Positions 118 through 26,954 of a stretch of DNA of 64,000 nt are shown here, piece after piece; the stretch's first letter is position 1, and each line of letters opens with the position of its first letter. The position numbers and the translations under genes are program-made. The stretch is taken from contig CAZCCG010000002.1 of the NCBI GenBank assembly GCA_964497535.1, positions 104,227 to 168,226 of the forward strand. Reading direction: 5' to 3'. The notes under the pieces were generated by a model. That model did not search any database and had not been told where the DNA came from. It saw nothing but the letters and a program-made list of their open reading frames with translations. This stretch comes from an uncultured Gammaproteobacteria bacterium. Lineage in GTDB: Bacteria; Patescibacteriota; Microgenomatia; Levybacterales; UBA12049.

Positions 118-1755
118 TTATGGTCTTTTGTATATCGTTACTGGTGTAGCAGCAATCAGTCCGGACAAATAAATGTTCAATTCATTTCCCAGATAAAGTT
201 GGAGGGCATGTGTCCTGGGAAAGTAAGCAATTGATTTATATTTTTCATGTTCCAGCCTTTTTATAAGTTCTTTTGTGGATGATAATTTTAAATAATTACG
301 ATTAAGCAGCGTGTCGGATAGGATAACATACTTCGGTAATTTCTTTGTAGTTGCATCAATAATTTGATAGGAAAAATAAGTATGGTAGTTGCGATTTTCC
401 TGTTTGAGGTAGTAGTCTTTGAGAACAAAATCAGGAACAGAGTGATAAATAGGGGTATTTTCAATACCAATATACGACCCTTTGGGAATATTTTTAAGAA
501 CCCATTCGGAAGACACCTGCACCGGTGCTTTTGTATATTTGGCACTGAGAAAAAAATAGGAAACAATCATTTGAAGTAGACCACAAACTATGAAAAGTGC
601 ATACCATGTATATTTTGTTTTTGTGGAGATACTTTTCACCCGTTCAAAGAGAACTCCGATCAAAAGAGCCAAAAATGGCAAGACTACCAGAAGCCTATTG
701 CCTGTTGCTCCAAGACCTAAAGGAATTAGAGAGATACTATAAACTACCAGACTGATTATGATAAAGACAGCTGGTTTATTTTTCTCTCTTTTCAGAAATA
801 TCTCGCCCACTGTCAGATATGATCCGTATACAAGTGCCGCAGTTGCAAGCAAAAAGAATCCATACCCGAAAATTCTGGGAAATTGTATCCCTATGGTATA
901 AACCCACGTCGGAATAGAGCCAATAAGAAAGTTAGTATCTTTTTGACTGGCTGTGGAAATATTTGAGGATAGATATTGCTGGTAGTTACTGAAACGAAAA
1001 ATAATATCCGGAATCCCCGCAAAAATGGCAAGAAGAGAACAAAATACTATCCCGATCGCCAGTTGTTTGTACTTACGCGTGAAGTTGGGTGTAAAATAAA
1101 AAAAGGCAATACCATAGAGAAGTAATTGAGGAAGGGCTGCCACTTTTGTCGCAAATGCCAATGCGCAGGGAATTGCCGCAAGTAAAAAGTTTTTAAGGGT
1201 TGGTTTTTCTCCATATCGCAAAATAAAAAAGAGTGAAAGCAGTATCCAAAACGTCAGGGCAATATCATATTTGAAATAATTGCTCAGGACTATCCACAGC
1301 GGTGTAACCGTAAAGAAAAAAACAGATACGAAAGGAGTTATTTTGAGATATTTTCTCGCAATGATTGCAATCAGAAGAATTGATAATACACCAAATAATA
1401 ACGTATTCAGACGCAAAACAATAAATATCTTTTCCTGCATTTGCAAATTGTCCATTGACGAATGTACTGAGAACGGTTGTATAACTCCTAAGATTACAAA
1501 AGGAATTAGATAAATACCCGTCAGAAAAAATTGGAAAATAGAACCATTTGCTGCTCCGCTAACATTTGGAGTACCATGTTTAAATAAAGCGCGGACTGCC
1601 TGCAATTGATGCCACTCATCCATATGATAATTAAAAGGATGTGTCTCATTTGGTATTCCCCATCCAATAACGCTTATCATCGCAAAAATGTAAACGAAAA
1701 CTACTAACAGAACCACTTTATTTTCTTTTCCCCATTGAAGAATCCTTGCCCACAT
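118..1755 (-). CDS. Polytopic GT-C family glycosyltransferase (PMT/ArnT-like, polyprenyl-phosphate-sugar dependent)
   Basis: 545 aa with more than 10 predicted TM helices. A DE motif sits in the first extracytoplasmic loop (NYHMDEWHQ), the typical GT39/GT83 architecture. Adjacent to the sugar-nucleotide genes. Confidence 0.55.
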   Translation of the reverse strand: MWARILQWGKENKVVLLVVFVYIFAMISVIGWGIPNETHPFNYHMDEWHQLQAVRALFKHGTPNVSGAANGSIFQFFLTGIYLIPFVILGVIQPFSVHSSMDNLQMQEKIFIVLRLNTLLFGVLSILLIAIIARKYLKITPFVSVFFFTVTPLWIVLSNYFKYDIALTFWILLSLFFILRYGEKPTLKNFLLAAIPCALAFATKVAALPQLLLYGIAFFYFTPNFTRKYKQLAIGIVFCSLLAIFAGIPDIIFRFSNYQQYLSSNISTASQKDTNFLIGSIPTWVYTIGIQFPRIFGYGFFLLATAALVYGSYLTVGEIFLKREKNKPAVFIIISLVVYSISLIPLGLGATGNRLLVVLPFLALLIGVLFERVKSISTKTKYTWYALFIVCGLLQMIVSYFFLSAKYTKAPVQVSSEWVLKNIPKGSYIGIENTPIYHSVPDFVLKDYYLKQENRNYHTYFSYQIIDATTKKLPKYVILSDTLLNRNYLKLSSTKELIKRLEHEKYKSIAYFPRTHALQLYLGNELNIYLSGLIAATPVTIYKRP

Positions 1756-1787
1756 AGTGATGTTATTATAGCTGATTTTTCTTCCTG

Positions 1788-1823
1788 TTCTACCTTTTTC
1801 TACTTTCTTCTACTTTTTTCTAC
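1788..1823. promoter_or_regulatory. Four direct TTCTAC repeats spaced exactly 10 bp apart in a divergent promoter region
   Basis: TTCTAC occurs at 1788, 1798, 1808 and 1818. The region lies between the divergently transcribed GT-C gene and the dehydrogenase operon. Confidence 0.3.
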
Positions 1824-1874
1824 TTCCTAGGCATTGATTTATACTCGCCTCTTCACTAAAATAGGGAAACGTAT

Positions 1875-3140
1875 ATGAGTAAAAAAACAATTTCGGTTAT
1901 TGGTATTGGCCGAGTGGGTCTTCCGCTCGCGCTGATCCTTGCCGAGGAAGGATACAAAGTATACGGAATTGGTCGTAACGAAGCAAAAATTGAACTCCTC
2001 AAAAAAAAGAAACTTCCCTTTATCGAAAAAGGAATCACAGCATTTAAAAAATATATTAATGTGTCTTTTATCCCTACCACTTCGTATGAAGTACTTTCAA
2101 AATCTTCTGTAATTATCCTTACACTGGGTACTCCCATTGATGAAAATATGAATCCGGTCCTGGATCAAATCAATGCTGCGCTTGATGCAATGATACCCTA
2201 TTTACGAAAAAATCAATTAATACTTCTGAGAAGCACTGTATCACCCGGAACTACAGTATATGTCAAAGACAAGCTGGAAATGATGACAAAATTTAAAGTA
2301 GGTAAAAATTTATTCCTTGCATTTTGTCCGGAACGAATCGCTGAAGGACAGGCTCTCCGAGAATTACGGGAAATTCCCCAAATTGTTGGAGGAATCAATG
2401 AAGCATCCAGCAAACACGCCAGAGAGTTTTTTGAATCCTGGAATGTACCGGTTGAAGTTACTGATTCAACTTCTGCTGAACTTGCCAAGCTTTTTACCAA
2501 CATGTATCGATATATTTCTTTTGCGATTTCAAATGAATTTATGGTAATTGCGGAAAGTTTTAATAAAAATATTCATGAAATCGTCCAGCTGGTAAATAAA
2601 GGATATAAAAGAGGAGGACTCGCATTACCAGGTCTCACTGCCGGGCCATGTCTTTTTAAAGATGGCTTTTTTTTAATCAATGAGAATCCTTTTTTGGACC
2701 TCATTACCGCATCGTGGAAAATCAATGAGGCAGTACCACTTTTTTTGATCAAAAAACTTCGGGAAAGAGTTAAATTAAAAAATAAGAGAGTTGCCATACT
2801 TGGCCTTGCTTTCAAGCCGGAAATTGACGACATACGGGAATCTTTGAGTTTTAAAATACGAAAGGCACTACTTCGGGAACATGCCCAGGTACTGCTCCAT
2901 GACCCGTTCGTCAAAAATTATCCAGCCCAAACGGTCTTTAGCAACATTAAAGAAGTACTCAAAGATGTAGATGTTGTAATTATTGCCACCAATCATAATC
3001 AATATAAAAAAGAAAAGGCCAAGATATTATCTCTCCTGAATAACAAAGTCTATATCTGTGATATCTGGAATATATTCGGGATTAATAAATTGCTTTTTAC
3101 CGTAAATCAAATCAAAACACATACTACTCGTAAAAAATAA
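1875..3140 (+). CDS. UDP-glucose/GDP-mannose dehydrogenase family nucleotide-sugar dehydrogenase
   Basis: N-terminal Rossmann motif VIGIGRVGLPLALILA. Family-typical central and C-terminal UDP-binding regions (GLAFKPEIDDIRES). Confidence 0.85.
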   Translation: MSKKTISVIGIGRVGLPLALILAEEGYKVYGIGRNEAKIELLKKKKLPFIEKGITAFKKYINVSFIPTTSYEVLSKSSVIILTLGTPIDENMNPVLDQINAALDAMIPYLRKNQLILLRSTVSPGTTVYVKDKLEMMTKFKVGKNLFLAFCPERIAEGQALRELREIPQIVGGINEASSKHAREFFESWNVPVEVTDSTSAELAKLFTNMYRYISFAISNEFMVIAESFNKNIHEIVQLVNKGYKRGGLALPGLTAGPCLFKDGFFLINENPFLDLITASWKINEAVPLFLIKKLRERVKLKNKRVAILGLAFKPEIDDIRESLSFKIRKALLREHAQVLLHDPFVKNYPAQTVFSNIKEVLKDVDVVIIATNHNQYKKEKAKILSLLNNKVYICDIWNIFGINKLLFTVNQIKTHTTRKK

Positions 3141-3141
3141 T

Positions 3142-4161
3142 ATGAAAATTCTAGTTACCGGCTCAGCCGGCTTCATCGGAGGATACTTGGTTGAAGAATT
3201 ATTACGTCTTGGACATACGGTGGTCGGAATTGACAATTATTCAAAGTATGGGAAACTTGAAAAAAGTTATGATCACAACAAAAACTATATCTTTATACAA
3301 GGGGATGCTAAAAATACCGTGCTTTTGAAAAAAGCAATAAAAAATTGTGACTATGTCGTCGCATTAGCTGCAAAAATAGGAGGAATCAGTTACTTTCATT
3401 CCCTGGCATATGATTTACTGGCGGAAAATGAACGGATTATTGCGGCAACATTTGATGCCGCAATTGCGGCTTTTCAAAAAGATAAATTGAAAAAAATAGT
3501 AGTTATCTCATCAAGTATGGTTTTTGAATCCGCAGAGATATTCCCTACTCCTGAAAGCGCTATTGATACATGTCCGCCTCCGAAATCGACCTATGGATTC
3601 CAGAAATTAGCCTGTGAATATTTTGCCAAAGGAGCATACGAACAATATAGGCTCCCCTACACAATAGTCAGACCCTTTAATTGCGTAGGAATCGGAGAAA
3701 CCAGGGCAAAAATGGGAACTACGTTAAAAAGCGGCAATGTAAAATTAGCTCTGAGCCACGTTGTTCCTGATTTAGTACAAAAAATTCTCAAGGGTCAGTA
3801 TCCCCTTCATATCTTAGGATCAGGCAAACAAATTCGTCATTACACCTATGCCGGCGATATAGCCAAGGGAATTTGCACCGCGATGTTTTCAAAAAAAGCG
3901 CTCAACCAGGATTTTAACATCTCAACAGATGAATCTACTTCTGTCCTGGAGTTGGCAAAACATATTTGGAAAAAAACACAGCAAAAAAAAGTATTCCGTT
4001 TTGTGAGCGATACTCCTTTTACCTATGATGTGCAAAAAAGGATTCCCGATACTACCAAATCAAAGAAAATCCTCCAGTTTGAAGCAACCACACCGCTTGA
4101 TACTATGCTTGATGAAGTAATTCCCTGGATTGAGCAGGAAATGAAACTGGGGAAATTGTAA
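3142..4161 (+). CDS. NAD-dependent epimerase/dehydratase (extended SDR)
   Basis: ILVTGSAGFIGGYLVEEL Rossmann motif and a YxxxK-type active-site region. Follows the dehydrogenase with a 1-nt gap. Confidence 0.8.
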   Translation: MKILVTGSAGFIGGYLVEELLRLGHTVVGIDNYSKYGKLEKSYDHNKNYIFIQGDAKNTVLLKKAIKNCDYVVALAAKIGGISYFHSLAYDLLAENERIIAATFDAAIAAFQKDKLKKIVVISSSMVFESAEIFPTPESAIDTCPPPKSTYGFQKLACEYFAKGAYEQYRLPYTIVRPFNCVGIGETRAKMGTTLKSGNVKLALSHVVPDLVQKILKGQYPLHILGSGKQIRHYTYAGDIAKGICTAMFSKKALNQDFNISTDESTSVLELAKHIWKKTQQKKVFRFVSDTPFTYDVQKRIPDTTKSKKILQFEATTPLDTMLDEVIPWIEQEMKLGKL

Positions 4162-4163
4162 GA

Positions 4164-6734
4164 ATGAAATTATCAATTATTGTACCTGTATTCCATGAAG
4201 AAAAAAATATTATCCAGGTTATAAAAAGAATCAATCACGATGTTGATACCTCTCATGAAATACTTATTATTTACGACAGCGTACTAGATCCGACCTATAT
4301 CGTCCTAAAAGATTATCTCCAGAAAAACCCAAAGAGCATCCGCCTCTTGCAGAGTGATCAGGGATCAAAAAAAGGAGTCATGAATGCCATAAAGACCGGT
4401 TTTGTCCATGCAAAAGGAAATGCCTGTGTAGTTCTGATGGCAGATCTTTCTGATGATATAACCCAAATAGATACTATGTATCATCTCTTCGAAAAAGGGT
4501 GGGATATTGTCTGCGCCTCACGGTATATGAAAGGCGGCAAGAAAATCGGCGGTCCTTTTATCAAGACTTTCCTTTCACGCATTGCAGGACTGACATTGCA
4601 TTATCTCTTTCGTATTCCTACTATGGACTCAACCAATGCTTTCAAACTCTACAACAGAAAGATTTTTGACGTAATAACACTGGAAAGTACCGGAGGGTTT
4701 GAATATTCCTTGGAAATAATACTAAAAGCACATAAAAAAGGATATAAAATTACTGAAATTCCGACAGTCTGGAAAGACCGGGAAGAAGGTACGTCAAACT
4801 TCAAAATGCTTGCCTGGCTTCCCCAATATGCAAAATGGTATTTTTATTCTTTTTCTCTACCATTTTTTAAAAAAATCTTTTCTTCAAATGTAGGGTTGGT
4901 TCTTATTAGCATGGTAGTGATTGTGTTAAAACTCAATGACATAGGGTTGGCATTGCGGGATAAAATAGTAATCAGCTCAAGCCTGGATTTTTCCTGGCAG
5001 GTCGATACAGTCCAACGGTTGCTGCACGGATATATCTTGGGAAAAGATTTTGTCTTTACCTATGGCCCCCTCTTTCAATTTCTTATCTCACTTCCTTCTC
5101 TGTTGCTGCATGTTCCTTCATACCTCTCCGTTGCGTTGTTCCCTGCAACAGGAATGGTAATAACCGGTATTTTGCTTACAATAGTAGTCAGACTGCTGTT
5201 GCCGAAAGACTCTGAACAGGTGATTCTTTTTGCCTATCTCCTTTTTGTTATTGGCATTGCATCTTTGGAACAGCTTATTGCAATTCGAATTCTTCTTCCT
5301 ATGGTCTATGCACTTATCTGGACAAAATATCTCATCTTTGATAAACCAACACTTAAAAAACACATAGGTATTGCACTACTGCCCAGTATCTTTGGGCTGT
5401 TTACCTATGATCTTTTTCTCTCATGTTTATTCATTACCATACTTCTTGCTTTTGGTTTTGTTCTTTATTCCAAAGACAAAAAACAAAAATTAAAATCTTT
5501 TTCTCTCTCAATTGTGCTGATACTCATGGCCCAGCTGCTCACCAGTCTTTTGCTGACAAATAATGGAGACTATATTCAGTATGCTGTTACCACGCTGCAT
5601 GATTACTATTATGTGATGAATATCCCCTGGCAATATGATCGTGATAATATACTTTTTATATTTCCCTGTATTCTTCTCCTGCTCATTCCGTACATAATTA
5701 CAATCAAAAATCTTTCAAACCACTTAAAAATATTGCTTATTGTTCTGACTATTGCGTCACTTCTTGAGATAAAAAGTGCGTTCATTCGTCCGGATGCGGG
5801 TCATATTATAAAAGCAGTATATCCCAGTATCATTATGGTTTTTTTAGTCCTGTATTTTGTCGCGCGTAATAAAAAAGGACTTATAATGCTAGGAATTCTT
5901 CTCTATATGCTAATTCCCTACAAACCGGTCTATTACAATACACTTGCCCCAAAAAATATTATTAATCTTTTGCATATTATACAAACCAAACCATCTTTTT
6001 TTTCTCTCTATAAGATGCCACCGGGCTATTACTATTCTGAGCAGGATTTTAAGACTTTTTCCTACCTTACTTCTGCCAATAGAAATAACATATGGATCTA
6101 TCCCTATGATAACTACATTGCCAATATTCAAAATAGCACGTATAACTCATTTGCTCTTCAATTGTATGATTATTCAAATTCATCAATAGAACAACAAACA
6201 GTCACACGGCTTGGGCAAAACCCGCCCGGCTATATTATCTTCGGCATTGATACAAAAGGAGCTTTGAATTTGGATGATATTCCAAATCTCACCCGTAATC
6301 CCCTTGTTTTTGCTTGGATTCTCAAAAATTATTCTGTTATGCAAACCAAACCTCATTATCTGATTTTGAAATATAATCCGGAAAAGAAAACCGCTGTAGA
6401 TAATACATCATGTAATCTATATAAGCTGGTTGTTGATTTAACTCCTGTTAACCCTTTTGAAAAAATATTCTCAAGTTTTGTGAAACCGTCTATTTATCTA
6501 ACAGGAGATCACAAACTCAGGTTACCCTATACTTCTTCGGCCAACTCATATAGTATCTTTACCGGATATAGAGATTCAAAAAAATTACAGCAACTTTTTG
6601 AAAATTCTATCAATTGGAATAACACAAAGGAAACCAATCAACAAGTAGGTATAAACAAACAAAATCCTTTTACTCACCACATTACTCTACTTGATTCATC
6701 GAAATTAAACACTGCTGTTATTTGTCTCAATTAA
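4164..6734 (+). CDS. GT2 glycosyltransferase (DPM1/GtrB-like, polyprenyl-phosphate sugar synthase) fused to a large polytopic membrane domain
   Basis: N-terminal ~230 aa resembles DPM1-like GT2 (IIVPVFHEEKNI ... LMADLSDD ... CASRYMKGG). It is followed by more than 10 TM helices and a C-terminal soluble region. Confidence 0.7.
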   Translation: MKLSIIVPVFHEEKNIIQVIKRINHDVDTSHEILIIYDSVLDPTYIVLKDYLQKNPKSIRLLQSDQGSKKGVMNAIKTGFVHAKGNACVVLMADLSDDITQIDTMYHLFEKGWDIVCASRYMKGGKKIGGPFIKTFLSRIAGLTLHYLFRIPTMDSTNAFKLYNRKIFDVITLESTGGFEYSLEIILKAHKKGYKITEIPTVWKDREEGTSNFKMLAWLPQYAKWYFYSFSLPFFKKIFSSNVGLVLISMVVIVLKLNDIGLALRDKIVISSSLDFSWQVDTVQRLLHGYILGKDFVFTYGPLFQFLISLPSLLLHVPSYLSVALFPATGMVITGILLTIVVRLLLPKDSEQVILFAYLLFVIGIASLEQLIAIRILLPMVYALIWTKYLIFDKPTLKKHIGIALLPSIFGLFTYDLFLSCLFITILLAFGFVLYSKDKKQKLKSFSLSIVLILMAQLLTSLLLTNNGDYIQYAVTTLHDYYYVMNIPWQYDRDNILFIFPCILLLLIPYIITIKNLSNHLKILLIVLTIASLLEIKSAFIRPDAGHIIKAVYPSIIMVFLVLYFVARNKKGLIMLGILLYMLIPYKPVYYNTLAPKNIINLLHIIQTKPSFFSLYKMPPGYYYSEQDFKTFSYLTSANRNNIWIYPYDNYIANIQNSTYNSFALQLYDYSNSSIEQQTVTRLGQNPPGYIIFGIDTKGALNLDDIPNLTRNPLVFAWILKNYSVMQTKPHYLILKYNPEKKTAVDNTSCNLYKLVVDLTPVNPFEKIFSSFVKPSIYLTGDHKLRLPYTSSANSYSIFTGYRDSKKLQQLFENSINWNNTKETNQQVGINKQNPFTHHITLLDSSKLNTAVICLN

Positions 6735-6736
6735 CT

Positions 6737-8002
6737 ATGAATCATTTCCAAACAATCGGAGAATATAGAAGCTATACCGGATGCCGCTTTTGCGAAAGTA
6801 AGCGCATAGTACCGGTTATTGATCTGGGACTCATGCCGCTGGCAGGAGGATTTCTCAAAAACAAAAATGAATTTGAGAAAGAAAAACTCTATCCGCTCGA
6901 GCTTCTCTTTTGTAAAGATTGCTTTTTACTCCAAACCAAACAGGTAATACAAAGCGATATATTATTTAAAAACTACTTTTATTTTTCTTCTTCCATTCAT
7001 ACGCTGGTCGAACATTTTCGAAAGCTCGCCAAAGAGCTGGGTCAAGCATATGCTTCTAAAGGAAAAAAGATAGTGGTGGAAATCGGATGTAATGACGGAA
7101 GTTTTCTCAAAGCCTGCGAAAACAATGGTTTTGTGCCGATTGGTGTGGACCCTGCTACCAATGTAGTTATGCCGCTCATCAAAAATGGTATGAATATCTT
7201 CAATGAATATTTCAACCAGCATTCGGCAACGAAGATTATTAAAAACTTCGGTAAAGCAGACATTATTTTTAGCTCAAATACTCTTGCCCATATCGAAGAT
7301 ATGCATGAGGTACTACGAGGAATCAAAAAAGTATTACAACCCCAAGGTTTGTTTATTTTTGAAGTGCATTATTTGGCAAAACTATTAAAAGACCTCCATT
7401 ATGACATGATCTATCACGAACACCAGTATTATTACTCTGTTCTTACCCTGCAACAGTTTCTGGATCAATTTGATATGGAAATCTGTGACGTCAAAGACAT
7501 TCCGATCCATGGAGGTTCTATACAAGTATGGGCACAGCACAAAAGTGAAGGAACACACAAAATCTCCCCTTCTGTCAAAAGATTCATCCGACAGGAACAG
7601 AAATTAGGATTGGACAAAGTCCAGACATTCAAGAAATTTTATAAAGAGATTGATACTACCAGAAAGAGCCTCCTTCGTTTACTTACAAGGCTTAGGAAGC
7701 AACAGAAAACTATTGCCGGATACGGCGCATCAGGGCGAGCGACAATCATTACTAATTTTTGTGGAATTGACTCAAGGCTTCTTGATTATATTATGGATGA
7801 TTCTCCGGCTCGCCAAAATATATATATGCCAGGAGTTCATATACAGACTTATTCTTCTTCAATTTTGGAAAGCAAACAGCCCCCGGCTTATACCCTTCTC
7901 TTTGCCTGGGCATTTATCGACGAGATCAAAAAAAGACATAGAAAGTATGAGAAAAGAGGAGGAAGATTTATTGTCCCGCTCCCAACAGTAAAAATTGTAT
8001 GA
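6737..8002 (+). CDS. NDP-hexose C-methyltransferase (TylC3/EvaC-type, zinc-ribbon + class I MTase + C-MT C-terminal domain)
   Basis: N-terminal CRFCES...LGLMPLAGGF zinc-binding motif, a central SAM-MTase region (VVEIGCNDGSFL), and a C-terminal IAGYGASGRATIITNF motif. The ORF track starts at a TTG at 6722; the ATG at 6737 avoids overlap with the upstream stop. Confidence 0.7.
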   Translation: MNHFQTIGEYRSYTGCRFCESKRIVPVIDLGLMPLAGGFLKNKNEFEKEKLYPLELLFCKDCFLLQTKQVIQSDILFKNYFYFSSSIHTLVEHFRKLAKELGQAYASKGKKIVVEIGCNDGSFLKACENNGFVPIGVDPATNVVMPLIKNGMNIFNEYFNQHSATKIIKNFGKADIIFSSNTLAHIEDMHEVLRGIKKVLQPQGLFIFEVHYLAKLLKDLHYDMIYHEHQYYYSVLTLQQFLDQFDMEICDVKDIPIHGGSIQVWAQHKSEGTHKISPSVKRFIRQEQKLGLDKVQTFKKFYKEIDTTRKSLLRLLTRLRKQQKTIAGYGASGRATIITNFCGIDSRLLDYIMDDSPARQNIYMPGVHIQTYSSSILESKQPPAYTLLFAWAFIDEIKKRHRKYEKRGGRFIVPLPTVKIV

Positions 8003-8868
8003 AAAAACATCCTACTATTTTGATTTTGGGAACCCGGGGAATGCTGGGACATACATTGTTTTCTTATTTTTCTTCTGTGTATCCAAAAACTACCTGGGGA
8101 ACCCAACGTAAAAAATCTTCCAACCCGTATCTACTACCTCTTTCTGTTGAAGGCTATGAAACGGATTTCAAAAAAATATTCAGAAGGGTAAAAAAGGTTG
8201 ATTATGTCATCAACGCAATTGTGATCAACCAAAAAGATGCAGCTATTCAAGATATCATCCGGGCTAACTCAATCTTCCCTCACCAACTGGAGACACTGGG
8301 CAAAAAGTATGGTTTTAAGCTCATCCACGTGTCAACGGACGCGGTATTCTCAGAACGGGCGGGCAAAGTAAATGAAAACACTCCGATCTCCCCTACAACG
8401 TTCTATGGTGCAAGTAAATTGCTCGGAGAAACGTCTGAGCCAAACGCCATAACCATCCGAACCTCACTGATTGGCCGAAGTCCCTATAAAAAAGAAGGGC
8501 TATTGGAACGGACAACAGGCCAAAAGACAGTAACTGCTTCTCCCAATCAACGCTGGGCAGGAGCTACAACACTTCAATTTACCACGTTTTGTAATTATCT
8601 ATGTAATGAAAAAGTATTTAAAAAACTACGCATTAAATCCACCGTGTTTCACTTTGCACCTTTGGGACCGACCAATAAGTATCACTTATTAAAGACCTAT
8701 CTTTCCTTGATTCATTCATCTTGCAAAGTACAAAAAACTACTCTTCCAAAAATGACCCGTCAATTGGCAACTCTTTACTCCCAGTTGCTTTTGAACAAAT
8801 ATTATCTCAATAATATTGAAAAGGCTCTTGAAGAATTACTCCTGTTTGAAGATAAAGCGGCTAACTAG
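7999..8868 (+). CDS. RmlD-like NAD(P)-dependent sugar reductase (dTDP-4-dehydrorhamnose reductase family)
   Basis: ILILGTRGMLG Rossmann motif. The HVSTDAVF...YGASKLLGE motifs match the RmlD substrate-binding domain. ATGA overlap with the upstream gene. Confidence 0.55.
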   Translation: MKKHPTILILGTRGMLGHTLFSYFSSVYPKTTWGTQRKKSSNPYLLPLSVEGYETDFKKIFRRVKKVDYVINAIVINQKDAAIQDIIRANSIFPHQLETLGKKYGFKLIHVSTDAVFSERAGKVNENTPISPTTFYGASKLLGETSEPNAITIRTSLIGRSPYKKEGLLERTTGQKTVTASPNQRWAGATTLQFTTFCNYLCNEKVFKKLRIKSTVFHFAPLGPTNKYHLLKTYLSLIHSSCKVQKTTLPKMTRQLATLYSQLLLNKYYLNNIEKALEELLLFEDKAAN

Positions 8869-9905
8869 TGTTTGAGGAGCTCCTCCTGGATTTCGGGGAG
8901 TGCTAACAAAAGCTTTGTTGTTTGTTTTTGATTTAACTGTTTGGTATTGGCCGAAGTATACGCATCCATTTTTGCAGCATCTGTCTTTTTCCAATGAAAC
9001 AGGTATTTATTGTAATCCAACCCCTGTGATTCAGAACGGATTCTATAATAGTTCCCATGTTCACTTGAACGTATCAGTTCCTCCTGAGCAATCAATGTCT
9101 CATGAACTTTTTCGCCTGCCCGTATACCCACTATTTCATATCCTTTGGAGTAATCAAATATTTCGCATACTGACCGTGCCAAAGTCTCCATTGTGCATGC
9201 AGGAGATTTACGAACATAGGTGCAGCCATTCTCCCCATAGATGAGGGTGTATAAGACCAGGTCTACGGCATCTTTGAGGGGAAGTAAAAACCGGGTCATA
9301 TCAGGATTGGTCACGGGAAGCTTTTTATTCTTGTGAATATGTTTTACAAAGTAAGGGATTACAGAACCTCTGGTGTACAGGACATTTCCATACCGTACTG
9401 TACAAAAGATAGTTTTTCCCTGATCCAGTAAGTTTTTGGATTCGGCAATAAATATTTTTTCCATCAATGCTTTTGACATCCCCATCGCATTAATGGGATA
9501 CACTGCTTTATCTGTGGAGAGTGCTACCACCTTTTGTACCTTGTGTTCTATTGCAGCGCTTACTACATTGTAAGCTCCCAGGATATTGGTCTTAACGGCT
9601 TCCATAGGATAAAATTCACAGTTGGGTACTTGCTTGAGTGCCGCCGCATGAAAAACATAGTCCACTCCTGACATCACACGGCTCAAACTTTCCTTGTCCC
9701 TAACATCTCCAATAACAAAGATAAGAATAGGATTATCAAATTCATTACGCATATCAAATTGTTTTTTTTCATCCCTGCTGAAAATGATAATTCTCTTTGG
9801 TTTACAATCCAAAAGGGCACCTACCACATAATGTCCAAAGGAACCGGTACCGCCGGTGATAAGAATTGTTTTGTTTTTTATAGCTTGCTTGTATACTCGT
9901 TTCAT
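8865..9905 (-). CDS. CapD/PseB/FlaA1-like UDP-GlcNAc 4,6-dehydratase (polysaccharide biosynthesis protein)
   Basis: The ILITGGTGSFG motif and family-typical layout. The start was trimmed to the ATG giving MKRVYK; the ORF track extends to 9941. Confidence 0.8.
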   Translation of the reverse strand: MKRVYKQAIKNKTILITGGTGSFGHYVVGALLDCKPKRIIIFSRDEKKQFDMRNEFDNPILIFVIGDVRDKESLSRVMSGVDYVFHAAALKQVPNCEFYPMEAVKTNILGAYNVVSAAIEHKVQKVVALSTDKAVYPINAMGMSKALMEKIFIAESKNLLDQGKTIFCTVRYGNVLYTRGSVIPYFVKHIHKNKKLPVTNPDMTRFLLPLKDAVDLVLYTLIYGENGCTYVRKSPACTMETLARSVCEIFDYSKGYEIVGIRAGEKVHETLIAQEELIRSSEHGNYYRIRSESQGLDYNKYLFHWKKTDAAKMDAYTSANTKQLNQKQTTKLLLALPEIQEELLKH

Positions 9906-9984
9906 AGAAGAGATGTGTATTATACAAAAAAAAGAAAGCACTAAGAACTACCTGAGAAAGACTTAACTATATCAAATCATGTCA

Positions 9985-10953
9985 TTATTGTCTGAATAAC
10001 CCTTCTGTAGTTCCCAAAAGCACTGCAAAGTCAGAGGTAAACTGAAAAAGGGGTAAATACCACAGTGCCGAAAGATGGTTGACATACCGGTAATTCTTTC
10101 CGATTGCCCAGAGACAATAAAAAATGAAAAAAAATAGTAAAAGTCCTATAAGAATATAATTCCCTGAAGTAAGAGCAATCACCAGAAGAATTCCTACCGA
10201 GAGATAGCGGGCAAAGATCAAAAATACCTTGGGTCTCCATAGCTTCGCTTGGGCATCGCCGAGGGCGAACCGGTAGAACATGGTATAGGCAGAAGTAAGA
10301 TTATCAGGTGGAATCCAGTATACTATAGCACTTTTTTCAAAGATAATTTTGTAGTTTTCGCTCTTCATTTTGTGGGCAAAAACATAGTCCTCATTATGAG
10401 AGAACTGCTCAGGAAACCCTCCGATTTTTTTCCATACGCTCTTTCGAAATGCCATAGAACGGGATGCGGGGAGAAAATTATCAGGAGTAACGTTGTCTTC
10501 CATAACCAAAACATAGGGGATAAGTGCCCGTTCAAAAAAAGTGTTCGAATAGCCACGATAATAGCCTGCAACTACTTCTGTCTTTGGATCTAAAAAGTGC
10601 TCATATATTTTCTCGATCCACTGAGAGTCCAGGCTACATCCGGCATCGGTAATAAAGATAACGTCCCCGCTGGATTTCCTAATCCCCTCATTTCTTCCTA
10701 CCGAACGATTCCCTCTTTTTTGCAAAATCTTTATAGGACTATTATCAGTCTTCTGTTGGTTGTGCTTAGTAGTATGATTTCTCTCTCTTAGATACTGAGT
10801 AATAACACCCATTGTATTATCGGCAGAACCTCCATCCACCAAAACAATTTCATCGGGATGACGCGTCTGCTGATCTATCGATTCCAACAATTTACCTATA
10901 GTATTTTCTTCGTTAAGGACTGTTATTACCAAAGATGTTCTTATTCTCGCCAT
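9985..10953 (-). CDS. GT2 glycosyltransferase with C-terminal TM helices (ArnC/GtrB-like)
   Basis: The VITVLNEENTIGKLLESI...VDGGSADNT motif region of GT2, with two C-terminal TM helices. Confidence 0.75.
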   Translation of the reverse strand: MARIRTSLVITVLNEENTIGKLLESIDQQTRHPDEIVLVDGGSADNTMGVITQYLRERNHTTKHNQQKTDNSPIKILQKRGNRSVGRNEGIRKSSGDVIFITDAGCSLDSQWIEKIYEHFLDPKTEVVAGYYRGYSNTFFERALIPYVLVMEDNVTPDNFLPASRSMAFRKSVWKKIGGFPEQFSHNEDYVFAHKMKSENYKIIFEKSAIVYWIPPDNLTSAYTMFYRFALGDAQAKLWRPKVFLIFARYLSVGILLVIALTSGNYILIGLLLFFFIFYCLWAIGKNYRYVNHLSALWYLPLFQFTSDFAVLLGTTEGLFRQ

Positions 10954-11981
10954 AAGTTAATATATAAATCGGCTACCCGATCCCACGTCTGCTCCCTCGC
11001 CCATGCATACGCCTTGCTGGTAAGAAGCTTTATCCTTTCGGGCTTATTTAGCAGATATTTTATTTGAATGCTAATCTCTTGGGAGGAATTGCCTATGATG
11101 AGGAATTTTGAAAAGGGAGTTAGCCTCAAATAGTCAGCTTTGAGAGGATTGTCGTATACCGCAAAGACAAGTCTTTTCGCAATAAAGGCTTCAAGGATGG
11201 ATAAATAGGAAGAAGCAAAGATAAAATCATACTTAGGAATTTCTTTCTCAACCCCCTTGGTGAATCCTGTTACACTCCCTACTGTCTCGACTTCCTGCCG
11301 GAGTGACCCATCACCTATGGCTGTAAACTCTACTTTCTGGTCACCTTCCCGTAATTGCCTGATAACATCTGCATACAATTCTATACCAGTATCTTTTTCA
11401 AGCCTCCCCAGGAAAGCAATTTTTATGACCTCTGCGGAAGGTTTTTTGTACAGAGACAGTATCGGATGGACTCCTCCATAGGTAATATAATTTGCCTTTG
11501 TATAGTACCACTTCTCAATAAACTCCCCAATACAGATATTTCCTTTTGACAACAGTTCACTCAATTTACGAATGACTATCGCCCTTTTTGCTGGAGGATA
11601 GACTCCTTCATATCCATGAAAGGTAGTGAAAACCGGCTTGTCCCGATAGATAAAACGGAAGGGTAAATACCAGAAAAAAACATCATGACAATGAATGACA
11701 TCAGCATCTTTGAGAATACTTTGATGATGGGAAAGCCAGGACCAAATCCGAAACTTTTTATACCAGTCGTCTTTCCCCGCCGGAATATGATGAATTGTTA
11801 ATCTACTCAGGACTGTTGGAGACAGGGGTAATTTGACCTTTGGATAACCGCTCGATAACTCTTCCGTAATGATAGTAACTTTATATCCTTTTTGGATCAG
11901 ATGCTTGGTAACCTCAAGGACATGGGTTTCAACTCCCCCAATGTGGGGATAGAAGTATTTGGTCAAAAAAACAACGGTCAT
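10941..11981 (-). CDS. GT4 (GT-B fold) glycosyltransferase
   Basis: N-terminal YFYPHIGGVETHVLEL-like motif; length and layout fit GT4. Confidence 0.7.
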   Translation of the reverse strand: MTVVFLTKYFYPHIGGVETHVLEVTKHLIQKGYKVTIITEELSSGYPKVKLPLSPTVLSRLTIHHIPAGKDDWYKKFRIWSWLSHHQSILKDADVIHCHDVFFWYLPFRFIYRDKPVFTTFHGYEGVYPPAKRAIVIRKLSELLSKGNICIGEFIEKWYYTKANYITYGGVHPILSLYKKPSAEVIKIAFLGRLEKDTGIELYADVIRQLREGDQKVEFTAIGDGSLRQEVETVGSVTGFTKGVEKEIPKYDFIFASSYLSILEAFIAKRLVFAVYDNPLKADYLRLTPFSKFLIIGNSSQEISIQIKYLLNKPERIKLLTSKAYAWAREQTWDRVADLYINLWRE

Positions 11982-12739
11982 GGTTTCTGGACTACGATGA
12001 AGATTTGGGATTCTCCAAAGAGCTTAAGAGAAATATAGTCTAGAAAGCTCACGATATCAACTAGAGAAAACTTGATAAAACGGATCAATTTGCCGGCAAT
12101 TGGATTGAGAAATAAAAAGTTACGCAAAACCCCTTCTGTTTTTTCCGTAGCAATAACGGTAAATCCAGCATTTTTTGCAATATCCTTGAGTTCCTCTACT
12201 GTATACCGGCGCAAGTGTCCAACTCTTTTATCAAAACCTGATGCATACCCCAACTTGTACAAAGGCGCGTTTTTTGATGGGGTGGACAAAATGGCTATTC
12301 CTTTTTTATTCAGGAGGTTAAAAATCTTCTTCATCGCATGCTTATCATCAGGCAAATGCTCCAGGACTTCACTGCAAAGTACATAATCATAGTTCCCCCC
12401 CGGCACCTTATGGGGAAATTCCATGGCTTCAAACTTCACATTTTTCAGATCCATCAATTTCGCGCTTTCCCTGGCAGATTCAACAGCCCTTTGTGAAATA
12501 TCAATCCCCACCACTGTATTGCCTTTGCTGGCCAGGTAGAAATCGATAGTCCCCGCCCCACAACCAATATCCAACACATTCCCCTTTTTTATGAATTTAT
12601 CAATGTATTTAATTATTATTTGATAAGTTATGTTGTTACCTTTAATCATATGGGTTTGTTTTGATGTGGTTTGATGAAAAATTTCATATTCTCTTTTATT
12701 CATGAGCTTAATTTTAACATTCAACAACATACTTGACAA
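11978..12739 (-). CDS. Class I SAM-dependent methyltransferase
   Basis: VLDIGCGAGTIDFYLA motif I and a downstream acidic motif. ATGA overlap with the GT4 gene. Confidence 0.75.
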   Translation of the reverse strand: MSSMLLNVKIKLMNKREYEIFHQTTSKQTHMIKGNNITYQIIIKYIDKFIKKGNVLDIGCGAGTIDFYLASKGNTVVGIDISQRAVESARESAKLMDLKNVKFEAMEFPHKVPGGNYDYVLCSEVLEHLPDDKHAMKKIFNLLNKKGIAILSTPSKNAPLYKLGYASGFDKRVGHLRRYTVEELKDIAKNAGFTVIATEKTEGVLRNFLFLNPIAGKLIRFIKFSLVDIVSFLDYISLKLFGESQIFIVVQKP

Positions 12740-15700
12740 ACAGTAACTTTTTTGATTATTCTGTTAATGTTGTGAGAAACTTCCTTGCCCAAAAGTTTCT
12801 TTTTTGGTTTATTCTAATAGCGGTATTACTCCTGCTATTTTCTTCTCGTTCTGTGTACGCAACTTCCAAAGTATTTAAGGATGATTTTGATGATGGCAAT
12901 GCTGATGGGTGGATTGTACCAAGGAATACATGTTTTTTTAATGGTTCTCCCTCACAATGGCAAGTTATTAATGGGAAGGTAGGGACAAAAATAAATGGTG
13001 GTGGGTGTATAACAGAACTAGTTCCTAATGATATTCTTTGGAATAATATTGGAGATAACTATTCGTTTGAATTTGACATGGACTTAGTTAGCGGAACGGA
13101 TCATAACTTTGGTTTTAGAAATACTGATCCAACTAAACTCTACTATGGAATCCATACATCTGCACCTAATTCTATGATATTACAACTGGTTGGTAATAGT
13201 AATATATACCAAAATACTGTTTATTTACCTGGAGAATTTTCTAATGGTCAAACTATACATTTTAAGATTGATGTGATAGGTGAACATATTAAGATATACA
13301 AGGGAATTCCTCCCCAACTAATATTAGATTATCCAGATGCCGGTGGATTAGCCCCAACTGGCAAAATAGTTTTACAAGCTTCTGCAGGAAGTGATCCTAG
13401 TTCTGAAACATATTTTGATAACATTGTTGTTACGAGTATTAATCCTGATCTTAATATTCCCTCTCTCAAACAAACGTCTGAACCATGGCAAGGACTTACT
13501 TATGATACTGCAAATATTTGGACTTCAGCCAATTCTACTATTAACCTATGGGGATGTGCCTTGACTTCAGTCACTATGGTTTTACAATATTACGGAATTA
13601 CAAAGCTAGTTGACGGAACAGTACTCAATCCAGGCACTCTTAATTCCTGGCTTAAGAGTCAAACTGATGGATATATAGGTAATGGTCTTTTGAACTGGCT
13701 AGCAATCTCAAGACTTAGCAAATTAGCAAAAGTACAAAATTCTTCCTTTTTATATGATGCACTTGAATTTCGAAGAATAAGTGGATCAGATTCGGCTCAA
13801 TTAACTTATGATATTAATAACTTAACTCCAGATATCTTAGAAGAACCCGGGCATTTTGTTGTTGCGAAAGGCATGAATGGAAATACTTTTAACATTAATG
13901 ATCCATATTATGACCGATTAACCCTCAATGAAGGTTATAATAATTCCTATTTATCGATTGAAAAATATATTCCTTCCCACACCAACCTCTCTTATATTTT
14001 ATTAGCTATTGACCCAAGTATGGATTTACTTATAATCGATCCACAAAATAATAAAACAGGGTCAGATGGAATAACAAACTATACACAAATTTCAAACTCC
14101 TCCTATTATTTACAAACTGGAATAACAGCACCTATCACCGGGATAACTTCTACTTCAAAAAAAATTCTTCTCCTTCCTACTCCTGTTGATGGAAATTATT
14201 CAATTGTTATTTATACAAACAATTCTTCTGTTCAAAACACCACTTTTAACCTCTATGAATACAATAAAAGTGGATATTTAAGTACGGCAACTTTTAGCGC
14301 AGCTCTGAAGCAAAATTTTCCTGCTCAGTATGAATTTATCTTCTCCCAAGATCTAGATCAACAATCAGCACCTATTGATAATACGAAACCAAAAATAATA
14401 AGTGCTAAAACTGCAGATACTGATAAAAACGGCAGGCTGGATGAAATAATAATAACATTTTCAAAGGATTTATTAGGATCCACGGTTACCAATTCTGACT
14501 TTTCTGTAACAACTTATACGCTAAAGCAAAACCAAGATGCTTCTGAAAATAACGGTGTTGTTACTTTGTATCTTGTTGAAAAAACAGAGAACGATACAGG
14601 ACAAACTCCGAAGATTTCATTAGCTAATCATGGAGTTGAAGATTTTAGTAATGGAAATTGGAATACTGAACAAACTATTACGACACAAGATTTTGCATCA
14701 CCGCTCGTTCCTATCATAAATATTGCTCAAGGTGATTATTATGCACCACAGCTGCTAACAATTTCCAGCTCAGATTTACCAAATATCCCTTCCCTTTACT
14801 ATACTTTTGATGGTTCAGATCCAGCTTCTTCCAGCAGTAGACTCCTCTATTCGACCCCTTTAACTATATCCGATGATCTGATTTTCAAAGCAGTTGCTAT
14901 AGATACAGGAGGAAATATTAGTGACACTCGCATTCAAACATATGGAATTGCTCCAGTTATTGATCCTGATTCTATTACCGTAACGGTAAGTGATACAGTC
15001 GCACTCGTATCTTGGACAACTAATAAAAACTCATATAGTAGAGTTATTTTTGGCAAACAACCAAAAAACATTCTTACATTTACTACGAGTGGTGGAACAT
15101 ATGGATATGAAAATACTACAATTGAAGATAATACTCGTGTACAAAATCATACTGTTACCCTTCCAAACCTTGAACCCGGATCAACATACTATTATCGAGT
15201 TATATCACGAGCAAGTCCTGAGCAAATTAGTACTGAAAGAAATTTTACTATTCCTGTAACTCCTATTGAATCTGTTATTTCATCAACTTCGCATTCTCCA
15301 GCCTCCCCCCAATTATCTAGCTCTATCTCTTCTTCAAATTTTTCCAAAAATATGGATTCATCTCAACCCTGTAATGATCAAAAACCTCAGAATTCTCCAG
15401 TACTTCTTTCTGCATTCCCAGGTATCAATACAGTAACACTTACTTGGACAGAATCTTCAACTCCGGTATCTTATTATTTAGTTTCTTATGGAATACATAG
15501 TGGGGAAACAATATATGGCAATCCCAATATTGGAGGTCGGGGAACAACGAGTTACGTGGTAGAAAATTTGTCAGGTGGAAAAAGATATTATTTTAAGATA
15601 CGTGCAGGAAATGGATGTATGCCCGGGGAGTATTCAAATGAAATTACCGCAACACCACTTGGTTTTGAATTGACAGGTATTGGAAGAGGATTTACAAAAG

Positions 15701-15921: not shown

Positions 15922-15994
15922 TACTTTGTATTAAAAAAAGAGAATGAATAATGGTGTTTGTCTCAGGAATTAAGTAAGAAGTAGTTTAATTTTA

Positions 15995-16026
15995 GCTAGA
16001 CACACCCGGTGTGTTAGGTAGACACA
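15995..16026 (-). repeat. REP-like palindromic element, copy A (reverse orientation)
   Basis: CTAGACACACCCGGTGTGTTAGGTAGACACAT is the reverse complement of the GATGTGTCTACCTAG-CACACACCGGGTGTGTG unit seen in copies C and D. Confidence 0.6.
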
Positions 16027-16040
16027 TAAGGATTTTATTT

Positions 16041-16715: not shown

Positions 16716-16775
16716 CCTGATGTGTCTAGCCCTGCCTGCCGGCAGGCAGGTGGCACACAACGGGTGTGTGGAATT
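16716..16775 (+). repeat. REP-like element, copy B, with an embedded GC-rich perfect palindrome
   Basis: CCTGATGTGTCTAG + CCTGCCTGCCGGCAGGCAGG (a perfect 20-nt palindrome) + TGGCACACAACGGGTGTGTGG. Confidence 0.6.
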
Positions 16776-18154: not shown

Positions 18155-18215
18155 AAAAAATCATGATAACACTTGATTATTGTATTATCAAAATGGTGAT
18201 TAACAATGCTGAGGA

Positions 18216-20167: not shown

Positions 20168-20248
20168 CCGCTGAGATTATATAGTGAAGAGTTAAAGAAG
20201 TCAAAATAAAAGGGTGCCATCGAAGAACGATAACACCCGTATAGTATA

Positions 20249-20686: not shown

Positions 20687-20776
20687 TACCGTGGAGATTA
20701 TATAGTGAAGATCTTATGAAGTCAAAAAAAGAGGGTGCCCCGAGTCAGACTCGGAACACCCCATGGATAACGATGA

Positions 20777-21109: not shown

Positions 21110-21125
21110 GATCCCTCCCCTCTCT

Positions 21126-21395: not shown

Positions 21396-21547
21396 CTCAG
21401 TCCCCTTTCAATGTACTCACCACACGGAAAACTCCGCGGGTATTGATTGAGAGTATACACTACTATGAGATAGAAATCAAAGGTGTACAGATAAAAAAAG
21501 CCTCCCCCGCGAAGCGGGAAAGGCCTGGGATGCGCCACACGGCGCGG

Positions 21548-22269: not shown

Positions 22270-22289
22270 CTCCTTCCATCTCTGGTCGA

Positions 22290-22724: not shown

Positions 22725-22746
22725 AGTAGACTTGCATGTTGGGAAA

Positions 22747-26875: not shown

Positions 26876-26954
26876 AATCTCATGAACAAAGCACAGCAAT
26901 TAAATAGAAGACCAATAACTTCCTAACGGGGAGGTATTTGTCGTGTGTACAAAA

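Follow-up and report, generated by a model that had tools for sequence, protein, structure and literature searches.

Which sugars does a patescibacterial surface locus build, and by what route could they reach the outside of the cell? This question is raised by ten tightly packed open reading frames (ORFs) at positions 118-12739 of a stretch of 64,000 nucleotides, referred to here as the window (GenBank assembly GCA_964497535.1, contig CAZCCG010000002.1, positions 104,227 to 168,226 of the forward strand), from a bacterium whose nearest relatives are labelled Candidatus Levybacteria. Patescibacteria, also known as the Candidate Phyla Radiation (CPR), are abundant, mostly uncultivated and attached to host cells, and their surface chemistry is almost unknown yet must mediate this attachment. 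The initial annotation of the window described a glycosylation locus. This description is upheld, and ORF calls, Pfam and NCBIfam place every gene that it named, with the domains assigned to it, where it had been located. We lean, if only just, towards reading the locus as a surface glycan decoration island of Patescibacteria that combines two polyprenyl-phosphate relays with two nucleotide-sugar routes. Its most interesting element is the fusion of family 2 glycosyltransferases (GT2) to polytopic membrane glycosyltransferases of the GT-C fold, together with an unannotated GT-C family, rather than the sugar C-methyltransferase (C-MT) that it also encodes. The window proteins were compared with 45 loci, cited by L numbers, using tblastn and Pfam scans of neighbouring genes.

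The enzyme at the centre of the first relay (relay 1) is an 856-aa protein encoded at 4164-6734, in which a GT2 domain (residues 4-170) is followed by approximately 620 aa with nine predicted membrane helices and a C-terminal soluble part. A full-length AlphaFold model was built from 26 homologues (predicted local distance difference test, pLDDT, 84), and residues 215-856 were modelled separately with AlphaFold 2 (pLDDT 86.7, predicted template modelling score 0.86). The fused GT2 had initially been called DPM1/GtrB-like, and fold and profile agree in assigning it to the DPMS/GtrB/ArnC class. Its top Foldseek matches were DPMS of Pyrococcus (5mlz), ArnC of Salmonella (9bhe) and GtrB (9nyc), with ranks 1-24 all occupied by DPMS, ArnC or GtrB, while its profile matched the PDB sequences of DPMS (1.3e-25), GtrB (2.7e-15) and ArnC (4e-13). 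The best NCBIfam matches were PgfS, ArnC, dolichyl-phosphate hexose transferase and PpgS. Two interface helices (215-231 and 233-238) come before the first transmembrane helix (TM1, 241-265).

The large polytopic membrane domain that follows is, judging by its predicted structure, an outward-facing GT-C-fold transferase belonging to a family without a database model. When residues 215-856 were searched against the PDB with Foldseek, the 14 best matches were all GT-C enzymes (probability 0.75-1.0, 12 of them at 0.90 or above; E 6e-5 to 0.34), comprising AftA (the best, 6e-5), DPY19, ALG9, AftB, PglB, AftD, ALG12, ArnT and ALG3. Later matches had probabilities below 0.1, except for glycosylphosphatidylinositol mannosyltransferase I, also a GT-C enzyme, at rank 19 (0.60). 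Across 26 sequences, the first outer loop contains the invariant residues D275, S277, W278, D281, R285, D295 and TYGP299-302, which directly follow TM1 and so occupy the position of the GT-C catalytic loop, and an extracytoplasmic alpha/beta domain lies at the C-terminus (approximately residues 590-856). No Pfam match at E ≤ 0.01 was obtained for the membrane domain of the window protein or of 10 relatives, leaving it outside the described GT-C sequence families (PMT_2, YfhO, PTPS_related, DUF6798, STT3 and others), and neither profile nor single-sequence searches of the PDB returned a match to it. A search of 1.84 billion (1.84e9) cluster representatives yielded 202 relatives with E ≤ 1e-3, of which 43 reached E ≤ 1e-30; of the close relatives, about one in three is a fusion, the others being standalone proteins of 600-650 aa. 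Standalone members identified with a hidden Markov model of the domain (600-740 aa) lie beside DPM1-like GT2 genes in CPR bacteria, Planctomycetota, Lentisphaeria, Acidobacteriota and Bacteroidota, and the fusion therefore records a conserved two-gene partnership.

Could this membrane domain be a non-catalytic anchor, scaffold or translocator, leaving the PMT_2 protein of the locus as the sole outward-facing transferase, as had initially been assumed? The TM-scores to GT-C structures of only about 0.4, the lack of a dedicated flippase gene among those found in the window and the PMT_2 genes adjoining the fusion in L002 and L007 would all agree with such a role. However, each of the 14 significant fold matches is to a catalytic GT-C transferase, the invariant acidic residues are located exactly in the first outer loop where GT-C enzymes have their catalytic position, the conserved C-terminal domain on the extracytoplasmic side looks like the acceptor-side domains of AftA-type enzymes, and in most relatives the PMT_2 protein is already fused to a GT2 partner of its own. 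We therefore regard a non-catalytic domain as very improbable. In the catalytic reading that we prefer, the cytoplasmic GT2 of the fusion would load a sugar derived from a nucleotide sugar onto polyprenyl phosphate, and the GT-C domain of the same protein would hand the lipid-linked sugar over to an extracytoplasmic acceptor. The initially proposed relay, which paired the fused GT2 with the PMT_2 enzyme, is not supported, since the membrane domain of the fusion itself appears to be GT-C. For both membrane proteins, identity as an O-antigen ligase or polymerase was rejected, with no Wzy_C match and no WaaL or SEDS protein among the fold matches.

The second outward-facing enzyme had been described as PMT/ArnT-like, and its profile score and motifs bear this out. 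The protein passes the Pfam PMT_2 cut-off (7.5e-8, 33.2 bits against 26.1) and its relatives score higher (PMT_2 7e-14), the homologue in L008 also matching PF02366 (PMT) at 1.6e-9. The motif HPFxYxMDEWxQ, with M45-D46-E47-W48, stands right after TM1 (14-32) and is invariant in the 11 sequences compared, as are R115, D164, K204 and D250. The same PMT_2 score and the DE motif in loop 1 dispose of the concern that this might be an unrelated O-antigen ligase or polymerase, while profile and single-sequence searches of PDB sequences returned nothing for it.

The partner of the PMT_2 enzyme is to be sought in the second GT2 of the locus, GT2_322, the two membrane helices of which (243-261 and 267-285) give it a GtrB-like architecture. 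In 8 of 10 related loci (L005, L006, L008, L011, L012, L013, L021 and L022), the homologues of GT2_322 and of the PMT_2 enzyme form a single protein of 841-870 aa with the GT2 at the N-terminus and PMT_2 at the C-terminus, and this pairs the PMT_2 enzyme with GT2_322 and not with the fused DPM1-like GT2. As far as sequence can tell, GT2_322 is thus its partner and the locus holds two GT2-to-GT-C relays, in the second of which (relay 2) GT2_322 and the 545-aa PMT_2 enzyme would perform as separate proteins what one polypeptide would do in most relatives. Some relatives have two GT2-PMT_2 fusion genes per locus (L005, 1-181 and 4445-7057; L006, 19946-22528), and add YfhO- and PTPS_related-type GT-C genes, reaching up to 4-5 GT-C enzymes in 20 kb. 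Additionally, the GT2-PMT_2 fusion is followed in relatives by a Wzx-like flippase and a 276-aa methyltransferase. As the PMT_2 gene of the window ends at position 118, the counterparts of these two genes may sit just outside it, and the locus probably continues beyond the left edge.

A more ambitious proposal is that the GT2-PMT_2 fusions found in relatives, like the 856-aa protein, are self-contained make-flip-transfer enzymes, in which a single chain would make the polyprenyl-phosphate sugar on the cytoplasmic side, bring it through the membrane with no separate flippase of the GtrA, ArnEF or Wzx type and then transfer it on the outside, with relay 1 operating through the unclassified GT-C family and carrying, in this case, a C-methyl-branched 2-acetamido-2,6-dideoxyhexose. 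We give this idea little credence at present. To our knowledge, such a sugar has not been described in any surface glycan.

The acceptor invites a further alternative. Divergent from the locus lies a gene (12733-15921, plus strand) for a predicted surface protein of 1062 aa. This protein has a C39-like peptidase domain, CHB_HEX_C/Fn3_assoc and PAP_N/Fn3 matches, a membrane helix at the N-terminus and a membrane anchor at the C-terminus, as well as a Ser-rich stretch ('SVISSTSHSPASPQLSSSISSS'), and may serve as an O-glycosylation acceptor. Either on its own or together with relay 1, the PMT_2 enzyme could accordingly be a protein O-glycosyltransferase that modifies Ser/Thr-rich linkers of surface proteins such as this neighbour, along the lines of Ppm1/Pmt in actinobacteria or of GtrB/PgtC2 and PgfS/PgfM1 in streptococci; a polysaccharide or lipid would be the other option as target. 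Membership of PMT_2/PMT, the DE motif in the first outer loop, the helix, Fn3, Ser-rich and anchor features of the neighbour and the published precedent (PMC12041528) are all in keeping with this. However, the 1062-aa protein is syntenic in no relative, PMT_2 also holds enzymes that modify lipid A or glycans, such as ArnT, the Wzx-like flippase beside the GT2-PMT_2 fusion in relatives suggests a glycan pathway, and AftA, which the relay 1 GT-C domain matches best by fold, builds polysaccharides. Protein O-glycosylation therefore seems to us an unlikely function. In the glycan decoration that we favour, we infer the substrates, the membrane crossing of the lipid-linked sugar and the acceptor.

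Which sugars could the relays carry? The most distinctive candidate arises from the C-MT, which had been read as a TylC3/EvaC-type enzyme with a zinc ribbon, a methyltransferase domain and a C-terminal C-MT domain; all three domains and the catalytic residues are kept. It matches PF08421 (Methyltransf_13; 8.4e-20, 71 bits against a cut-off of 31.3), Methyltransf_23 (1.4e-21) and PF08484 (Methyltransf_14; 1.1e-50), the last over profile positions 1-160 of 160, showing that the C-terminal domain has not been lost. Full-length matches were obtained to KijD1 (5t64, 8e-74), MtmC (4rv9, 2.5e-72) and TcaB9 (3ndi, 2.6e-71). Its zinc ribbon, CRFC...CKDC, aligns with the Cys pairs (CxxC...CxxC) of KijD1 and MtmC, and its motifs EIGCNDG (for S-adenosylmethionine, SAM), NTLAH (NTxxH) and IYHEH (Y-x-E-H) align with their counterparts in the same two enzymes. 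We take the Y-x-E-H and N-x-x-x-H residues to have the catalytic roles described for TcaB9. The 421-aa form is the one on record, and a TTG start at 6722 would make 426 aa. As far as sequence data go, sugar C-MTs are not the rarity beyond antibiotic pathways that had been assumed: among 8000 candidates scored, at least 4240 clusters were found at E ≤ 1e-30, and these enzymes recur in related Patescibacteria loci. In the 120 clusters listed (the query's own included), identity to the window C-MT is 49-70% over the full length and nearly all come from environmental assemblies.

The substrate of the C-MT may be supplied by the UDP-N-acetylglucosamine (UDP-GlcNAc) 4,6-dehydratase. This gene had been described as CapD-like; the dehydratase is real, and its type can be refined to FnlA/CapE from its M-x-x-x-K motif and best matches, which are FnlA (4j2o, 3.5e-102) and CapE (3vvb, 1e-100) ahead of PseB/FlaA1 (2gn4, 2.7e-69). 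In place of the Y-x-x-x-K of short-chain dehydrogenases/reductases (SDRs), it shares with FnlA and CapE an M-x-x-x-K motif, read in STDKAVYPINAMGMSK: its AMGMSK lines up with AMGISK in both of these enzymes and with LYGATK in PseB, which retains the Tyr. Its TIGR04130 score of 390.9 bits is below the equivalog cut-off of 730, and we therefore name it FnlA/CapE-like and not an FnlA equivalog. The form on record has 346 aa, and the ORF reaches 9941. FnlA, CapE, WbjB and WbvB convert UDP-GlcNAc into UDP-2-acetamido-2,6-dideoxy-4-ketohexoses and enolise C-3 and C-5 in doing so, which by analogy is exactly the chemistry that a TylC3-type enzyme would exploit. The RmlD-like reductase, the start of which overlaps the stop of the C-MT gene (ATGA), was likewise correctly named, scoring 58.6 bits for RmlD_sub_bind against a cut-off of 27 and displaying GxxGxxG, STD and YGASK. 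Only this Pfam domain passes, with TIGR01214 at 45 bits against an equivalog cut-off of 224, making the enzyme RmlD-like and not RmlD; its matches to solved RmlD structures (2ggs and 5u9c) are weak. Taken together, these three enzymes would form a route in which the FnlA/CapE-type enzyme converts UDP-GlcNAc to UDP-2-acetamido-2,6-dideoxy-4-ketohexose, the TylC3/TcaB9-type enzyme adds a methyl group to a carbon next to the keto group and the RmlD-like enzyme reduces C-4, the expected product being a UDP-2-acetamido-2,6-dideoxy-C-methyl-L-hexose. The methylated position would most likely be C-3, with C-5 (as in NovU) possible.

The second nucleotide-sugar route begins with the dehydrogenase, which scores 3.6e-93 for TIGR03026 and above no equivalog cut-off. 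Among solved structures it is closest to Cap5O (1e-51) and to a UDP-N-acetylmannosaminuronic acid dehydrogenase from an archaeon, and homologues in L005, L008 and L010 are 66-69% identical. The adjacent 339-aa protein had been called an epimerase/dehydratase; it is indeed an extended SDR, but the dehydratase half of the name finds no support in its motif, SSSM...YGFQK. We take TDE and TSE to be the motifs of dehydratases and decarboxylases, respectively, at the place where this SDR has SSSM, and it is therefore read as epimerase-like. For the same reason, its role as a 4,6-dehydratase feeding the C-MT was rejected. Its best solved relatives are GalE (4zrm, 1.7e-25), UDP-glucuronic acid 4-epimerase (6zl6) and UXS (4lk3). 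We treat it as the partner of the dehydrogenase, with which it would produce a hexuronic or N-acetylhexuronic acid epimer.

Two routes and two relays leave more than one way of connecting them. Comparison of loci shows a conserved core made up of both relays and the GT4 gene (homologues 36-49% identical in nine related loci), around which the sugar-modifying enzymes vary from locus to locus. One variable cassette is formed by the C-MT and RmlD-like genes and occurs in 6 of approximately 16 clade loci, the window included. The C-MT adjoins the fusion in the window, L002 and L007 and is near it in L006. A recognisable RmlD-like homologue is paired with the C-MT in the window, L002 and L007, and in L006 a 296-aa SDR beside the C-MT matches RmlD_sub_bind (PF04321), although tblastn did not recover it as homologous to the RmlD-like gene of the window. 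In L002 and L007, the C-MT and RmlD-like genes lie directly upstream of the fusion, and in L008 and L010 a C-MT paralogue is the immediate neighbour of an unfused DPM1-like GT2. This fits the placement of a C-methyl sugar on polyprenyl phosphate but is not proof of it; synteny favours relay 1 as the presumed carrier. Other loci carry different sets of genes: a GFO/IDH/MocA oxidoreductase, an ATP-grasp enzyme, a haloacid dehalogenase-type phosphatase and a DegT aminotransferase form a cassette in L008 (3438-8001), L021 encodes a carbamoyltransferase (17112-18731), L002 holds a second C-MT paralogue with a DUF6798 membrane protein (15452-16681), and in some loci an SDR is the only tailoring gene.

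The contiguity of the dehydrogenase, SDR and fusion genes, with gaps of 1-2 nt, points in another direction. Relay 1 might carry a hexuronic or N-acetylhexuronic acid made by the dehydrogenase and the SDR, by a logic like that of Rhizobium RgtE/RgtA-D, with its polyprenyl-phosphate galacturonic acid donor, or of Ugd/ArnA/ArnC/ArnT, and the C-methyl sugar would then be added in the cytoplasm to a lipid-linked glycan by Leloir enzymes, namely the GT4 and GT2_322. Such an arrangement would agree with L005, in which the dehydrogenase, the SDR, a small methyltransferase and the fusion occur without a C-MT, and with L011, L013 and L021, where some SDR accompanies the GT2/GT-C pair. It would also agree with loci of Planctomycetota, Lentisphaeria and Actinomycetota in which homologues of the SDR (59-65% identical) lie beside a DPM1-like GT2 without a C-MT. 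However, the C-MT abuts the fusion or a standalone DPM1-like GT2 in L002, L007, L008 and L010, in the first two of which the C-MT and RmlD-like genes are immediately upstream of the fusion, and if the sugar cassette is exchangeable both readings could hold in different genomes. We consider a hexuronic acid cargo possible but rather unlikely, and favour the C-methyl sugar for relay 1. To put the question of cargo by itself, we conclude that there is a C-methyl sugar route here and that its coupling to relay 1 is plausible, and it is equally possible that relay 1 takes the dehydrogenase/SDR product while the C-methyl sugar is attached via the cytoplasmic GT4 or GT2.

The homologues of the 339-aa SDR deserve mention in their own right. 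In L016-L019 and L023 (approximately 8800-10700 in each, 500-2260 in the short L017), they are always beside a DPM1-like GT2; this set, at 59-65% identity, covers CPR bacteria, Planctomycetota, Lentisphaeria and Actinomycetota, and in L016-L019 (Lentisphaeria and Planctomycetota) the new GT-C family is represented by a distant member no more than two genes further on. This suggests a widespread module. A fusion of SDR and GT2 in Paludisphaera (L018) was only apparent, its two matches lying in different reading frames.

Several observations weigh against a decoration island in which relay 1 carries the C-methyl sugar. The FnlA-like gene lies in an opposite, convergent operon with the genes for GT2_322, the GT4 and the 253-aa methyltransferase, and in none of the relatives did tblastn place a homologue of it less than 10 kb from the fusion, so that its connection with the C-MT is circumstantial. 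In relatives, the C-MT has other SDRs as partners; in L002 there is, in addition, an RmlC-like cupin as well as another SDR (best solved match 6vo6). Across phyla, the most widely conserved neighbour of the DPM1-like GT2 is the 339-aa SDR, not the C-MT. The relays themselves raise doubts too. The family consensus of the fused GT2 domain is MADLSDD, which retains only the second Asp of the DAD motif that we take DPM1 and ArnC to carry, and the search of GT2_322 against PDB sequences gave no match to GtrB, DPMS or ArnC. The TM-scores of the relay 1 membrane domain are modest (0.38-0.44), and neither a flippase (GtrA-, ArnE/F- or Wzx-like) nor a priming phosphoglycosyl transferase was found within the window.

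Table 1. Predicted genes and gene parts of the glycosylation locus (positions in the window).
Feature	Position	Strand	Size and basis
PMT_2 GT-C enzyme (PMT/ArnT-like)	118-1755	-	545 aa, ~10 membrane helices
Nucleoside diphosphate (NDP)-sugar 6-dehydrogenase	1875-3140	+	421 aa, TIGR03026 3.6e-93
Extended SDR, epimerase-like	3142-4161	+	339 aa, Epimerase 1e-39
Fusion, GT2/GT-A part (residues 1-238), polyprenyl-phosphate sugar synthase-like	4164-4877	+	fold and profile
Fusion, GT-C-fold part and C-terminal extracytoplasmic domain (residues 239-856)	4878-6734	+	fold
NDP-hexose C-methyltransferase (TylC3/TcaB9/KijD1 type)	6737-8002	+	421 aa, Methyltransf_13/23/14
RmlD-like NDP-4-ketohexose reductase	7999-8868	+	289 aa, RmlD_sub_bind 7e-16
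FnlA/CapE-type UDP-GlcNAc 4,6-dehydratase/5(3)-epimerase	8865-9905	-	346 aa, Polysacc_synt_2 7e-97
GT2_322, two C-terminal membrane helices	9985-10953	-	322 aa, Glycos_transf_2 5e-21
GT4 (GT-B), cytoplasmic glycosyltransferase	10941-11981	-	346 aa, Glyco_transf_4 3.7e-16
Class I SAM methyltransferase, start codon uncertain	11978-12739	-	253 aa, Methyltransf_31 1.3e-24

The genes fall into three transcription blocks (Table 1). The PMT_2 gene stands alone on the minus strand, the five genes from the dehydrogenase to the RmlD-like reductase follow on the plus strand with spacings of 1-2 nt or overlaps, and the remaining four form a minus-strand block convergent with the plus block. Promoter and terminator scans did no better than chance, with 55 hits where 58 were expected, and operons were therefore not defined from them. 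The 253-aa enzyme is probably a sugar O-methyltransferase; in L008 and L013 its homologues (52-53% identical) adjoin that of the GT4. Metagenomes supply nearly all homologues of the locus proteins, and those that are named belong to Patescibacteria (Candidatus Levybacteria/Levyibacteriota and Roizmanbacteria). The window proteins are singletons in clustering at 90% identity and were found in runs SRR9179560-63.

The window as a whole has a G+C content of approximately 37% and also encodes a sigma-70 factor, RodA/FtsW, ParB, ribosomal protein L21, a class I aminoacyl-tRNA synthetase and one tRNA-Val. Just past the locus and the neighbouring surface protein is a gene for an IS200-type Y1 transposase (16011-16712, plus strand), which may mark a mobile or recombination-prone boundary. 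The 459-aa sigma-70 family protein (16775-18154, minus strand) has an N-terminal extension of approximately 200 aa without a Pfam match, and its region 2 begins at residue 212. G+C rises to 0.46-0.49 at 20000-24000 and 26000-28000, against 0.35-0.40 elsewhere in the window; the G+C-rich stretches at 20.2-22.7 kb and 25.8-28.5 kb contain only short or overlapping ORFs, those tested being without a Pfam match, and Rfam found there, at a relaxed threshold too, only the tRNA-Val (28568-28640). Further along, at 46358-52405, a 498-aa protein with only weak, sub-threshold biotin-lipoyl-like matches, possibly a membrane-fusion-type partner, precedes an AcrB-type resistance-nodulation-division (RND) transporter (1138 aa, 20 predicted membrane helices), and a DsbA-like thioredoxin and then DsbB come after it. 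This RND/DsbA/DsbB envelope machinery is perhaps unexpected for Patescibacteria with small genomes. A membrane acyltransferase of the type that O-acetylates surface glycans (Acyl_transf_3) is encoded far from the locus, at 55938-57014 (plus strand).

For an organism group whose surface is so poorly described, the locus and its relatives suggest a conserved two-relay core that accepts plug-in sugar cassettes. Those seen include C-methylation, amination, carbamoylation and O-methylation, and they are a likely source of surface diversity at the strain level. The fusions can be used as Rosetta stones in that each GT2 is assigned its cognate GT-C enzyme, and they bring to light a GT-C family that no database model covers and that also occurs unfused in Planctomycetota, Acidobacteriota and Bacteroidota. 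The passage of a lipid-phosphate sugar from its synthase to its consumer across the membrane is poorly understood for dolichyl-phosphate mannose and undecaprenyl-phosphate sugars alike, and a natural single chain of GT2 and GT-C would be a convenient subject for structural work on this step.

How does the locus compare with systems already described? Within the library that it covered, our literature search found nothing specific on GT2-GT-C fusions or on the glycosylation machinery of Patescibacteria, a weak negative that is not proof of novelty. Relays in which lipid carriers are charged and consumed have a precedent in AglD/AglR/AglS of Haloferax (PMC3871713), and the GT2-to-GT-C relay has one in streptococcal GtrB/PgtC2 and PgfS/PgfE/PgfM1 (PMC12041528). 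In these systems, as in GtrA/GtrB/Gtr(type) and CsbB/GtcA/YfhO, a cytoplasmic GT2 loads polyprenyl or dolichyl phosphate and a GT-C enzyme transfers the sugar outside, as is proposed here. Further parallels are the SDR epimerase shared with the Pgf system and the Wzx-like gene, recalling the AglR system, in relatives of the window locus. In contrast to the three-component systems, GT2 and GT-C are one polypeptide here (relay 1 in the window, relay 2 in relatives), the GT-C of relay 1 is by Pfam not YfhO, PMT_2, GT83 or any Gtr type, and the window has no GtrA/GtcA-type flippase gene. The Arn pathway and Rhizobium RgtE/RgtA-D have in common with the locus an NDP-sugar dehydrogenase, a uronic-acid SDR, a GT2 that makes a lipid-phosphate sugar and a GT-C enzyme of the PMT_2/ArnT type. 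Membership of the Arn pathway was nevertheless ruled out, as neither the locus proteins nor the membrane ORFs found in the window include ArnB, the formyltransferase part of ArnA, ArnD or ArnE/F; aminotransferase, formyltransferase and deformylase are all lacking, and SSSM in the SDR lacks the Glu of the decarboxylases. The source is presumably a monoderm-like CPR bacterium without lipid A, in which case the acceptor must differ from that of Arn and Rgt.

Among the sugar-modifying enzymes, a TylCIII-like C-MT has long been proposed for the synthesis of virenose, a sugar of the Coxiella O-antigen (PMC3539893). The window C-MT has the same three-domain architecture as this enzyme and as TylC3, EryBIII, EvaC, TcaB9, KijD1, MtmC and NovU, aligns with TylC3/TcaB9-type enzymes over its full length (~1e-72) with zinc cysteines, SAM motif and E-H dyad conserved, and is flanked by a 4-ketoreductase as in deoxysugar pathways. 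However, it belongs to a CPR surface-glycan locus where TylC3-type enzymes belong to an antibiotic cluster, and its likely substrate is a UDP-2-acetamido-4-keto sugar where theirs is a dTDP-2,6-dideoxy sugar. The combination of an FnlA/CapE-type first enzyme with an RmlD-like C-4 reductase parallels that of WbvB and WbvR in the formation of UDP-L-RhaNAc. In comparison with FnlA/FnlB/FnlC, CapE/F/G and WbvB/WbvR/WbvD, the locus is without FnlB/CapF and without a 2-epimerase (FnlC/CapG/WbvD), a C-MT is interposed, and scores are below the NCBIfam equivalog cut-offs. Finally, the GT-C domain of the fusion resembles AftA/AftB/AftD, DPY19, ALG3/9/12, PglB and ArnT in its multi-helix membrane module, the acidic residues of its first outer loop and its extracytoplasmic C-terminal domain. 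It differs from them in having no detectable sequence similarity, a TM-score of about 0.4 and an N-terminal fusion to a GT2. Overall, the mechanism of the locus would appear to follow known lipid-phosphate sugar relays, and what seems new is the fused arrangement and the GT-C family without a model.

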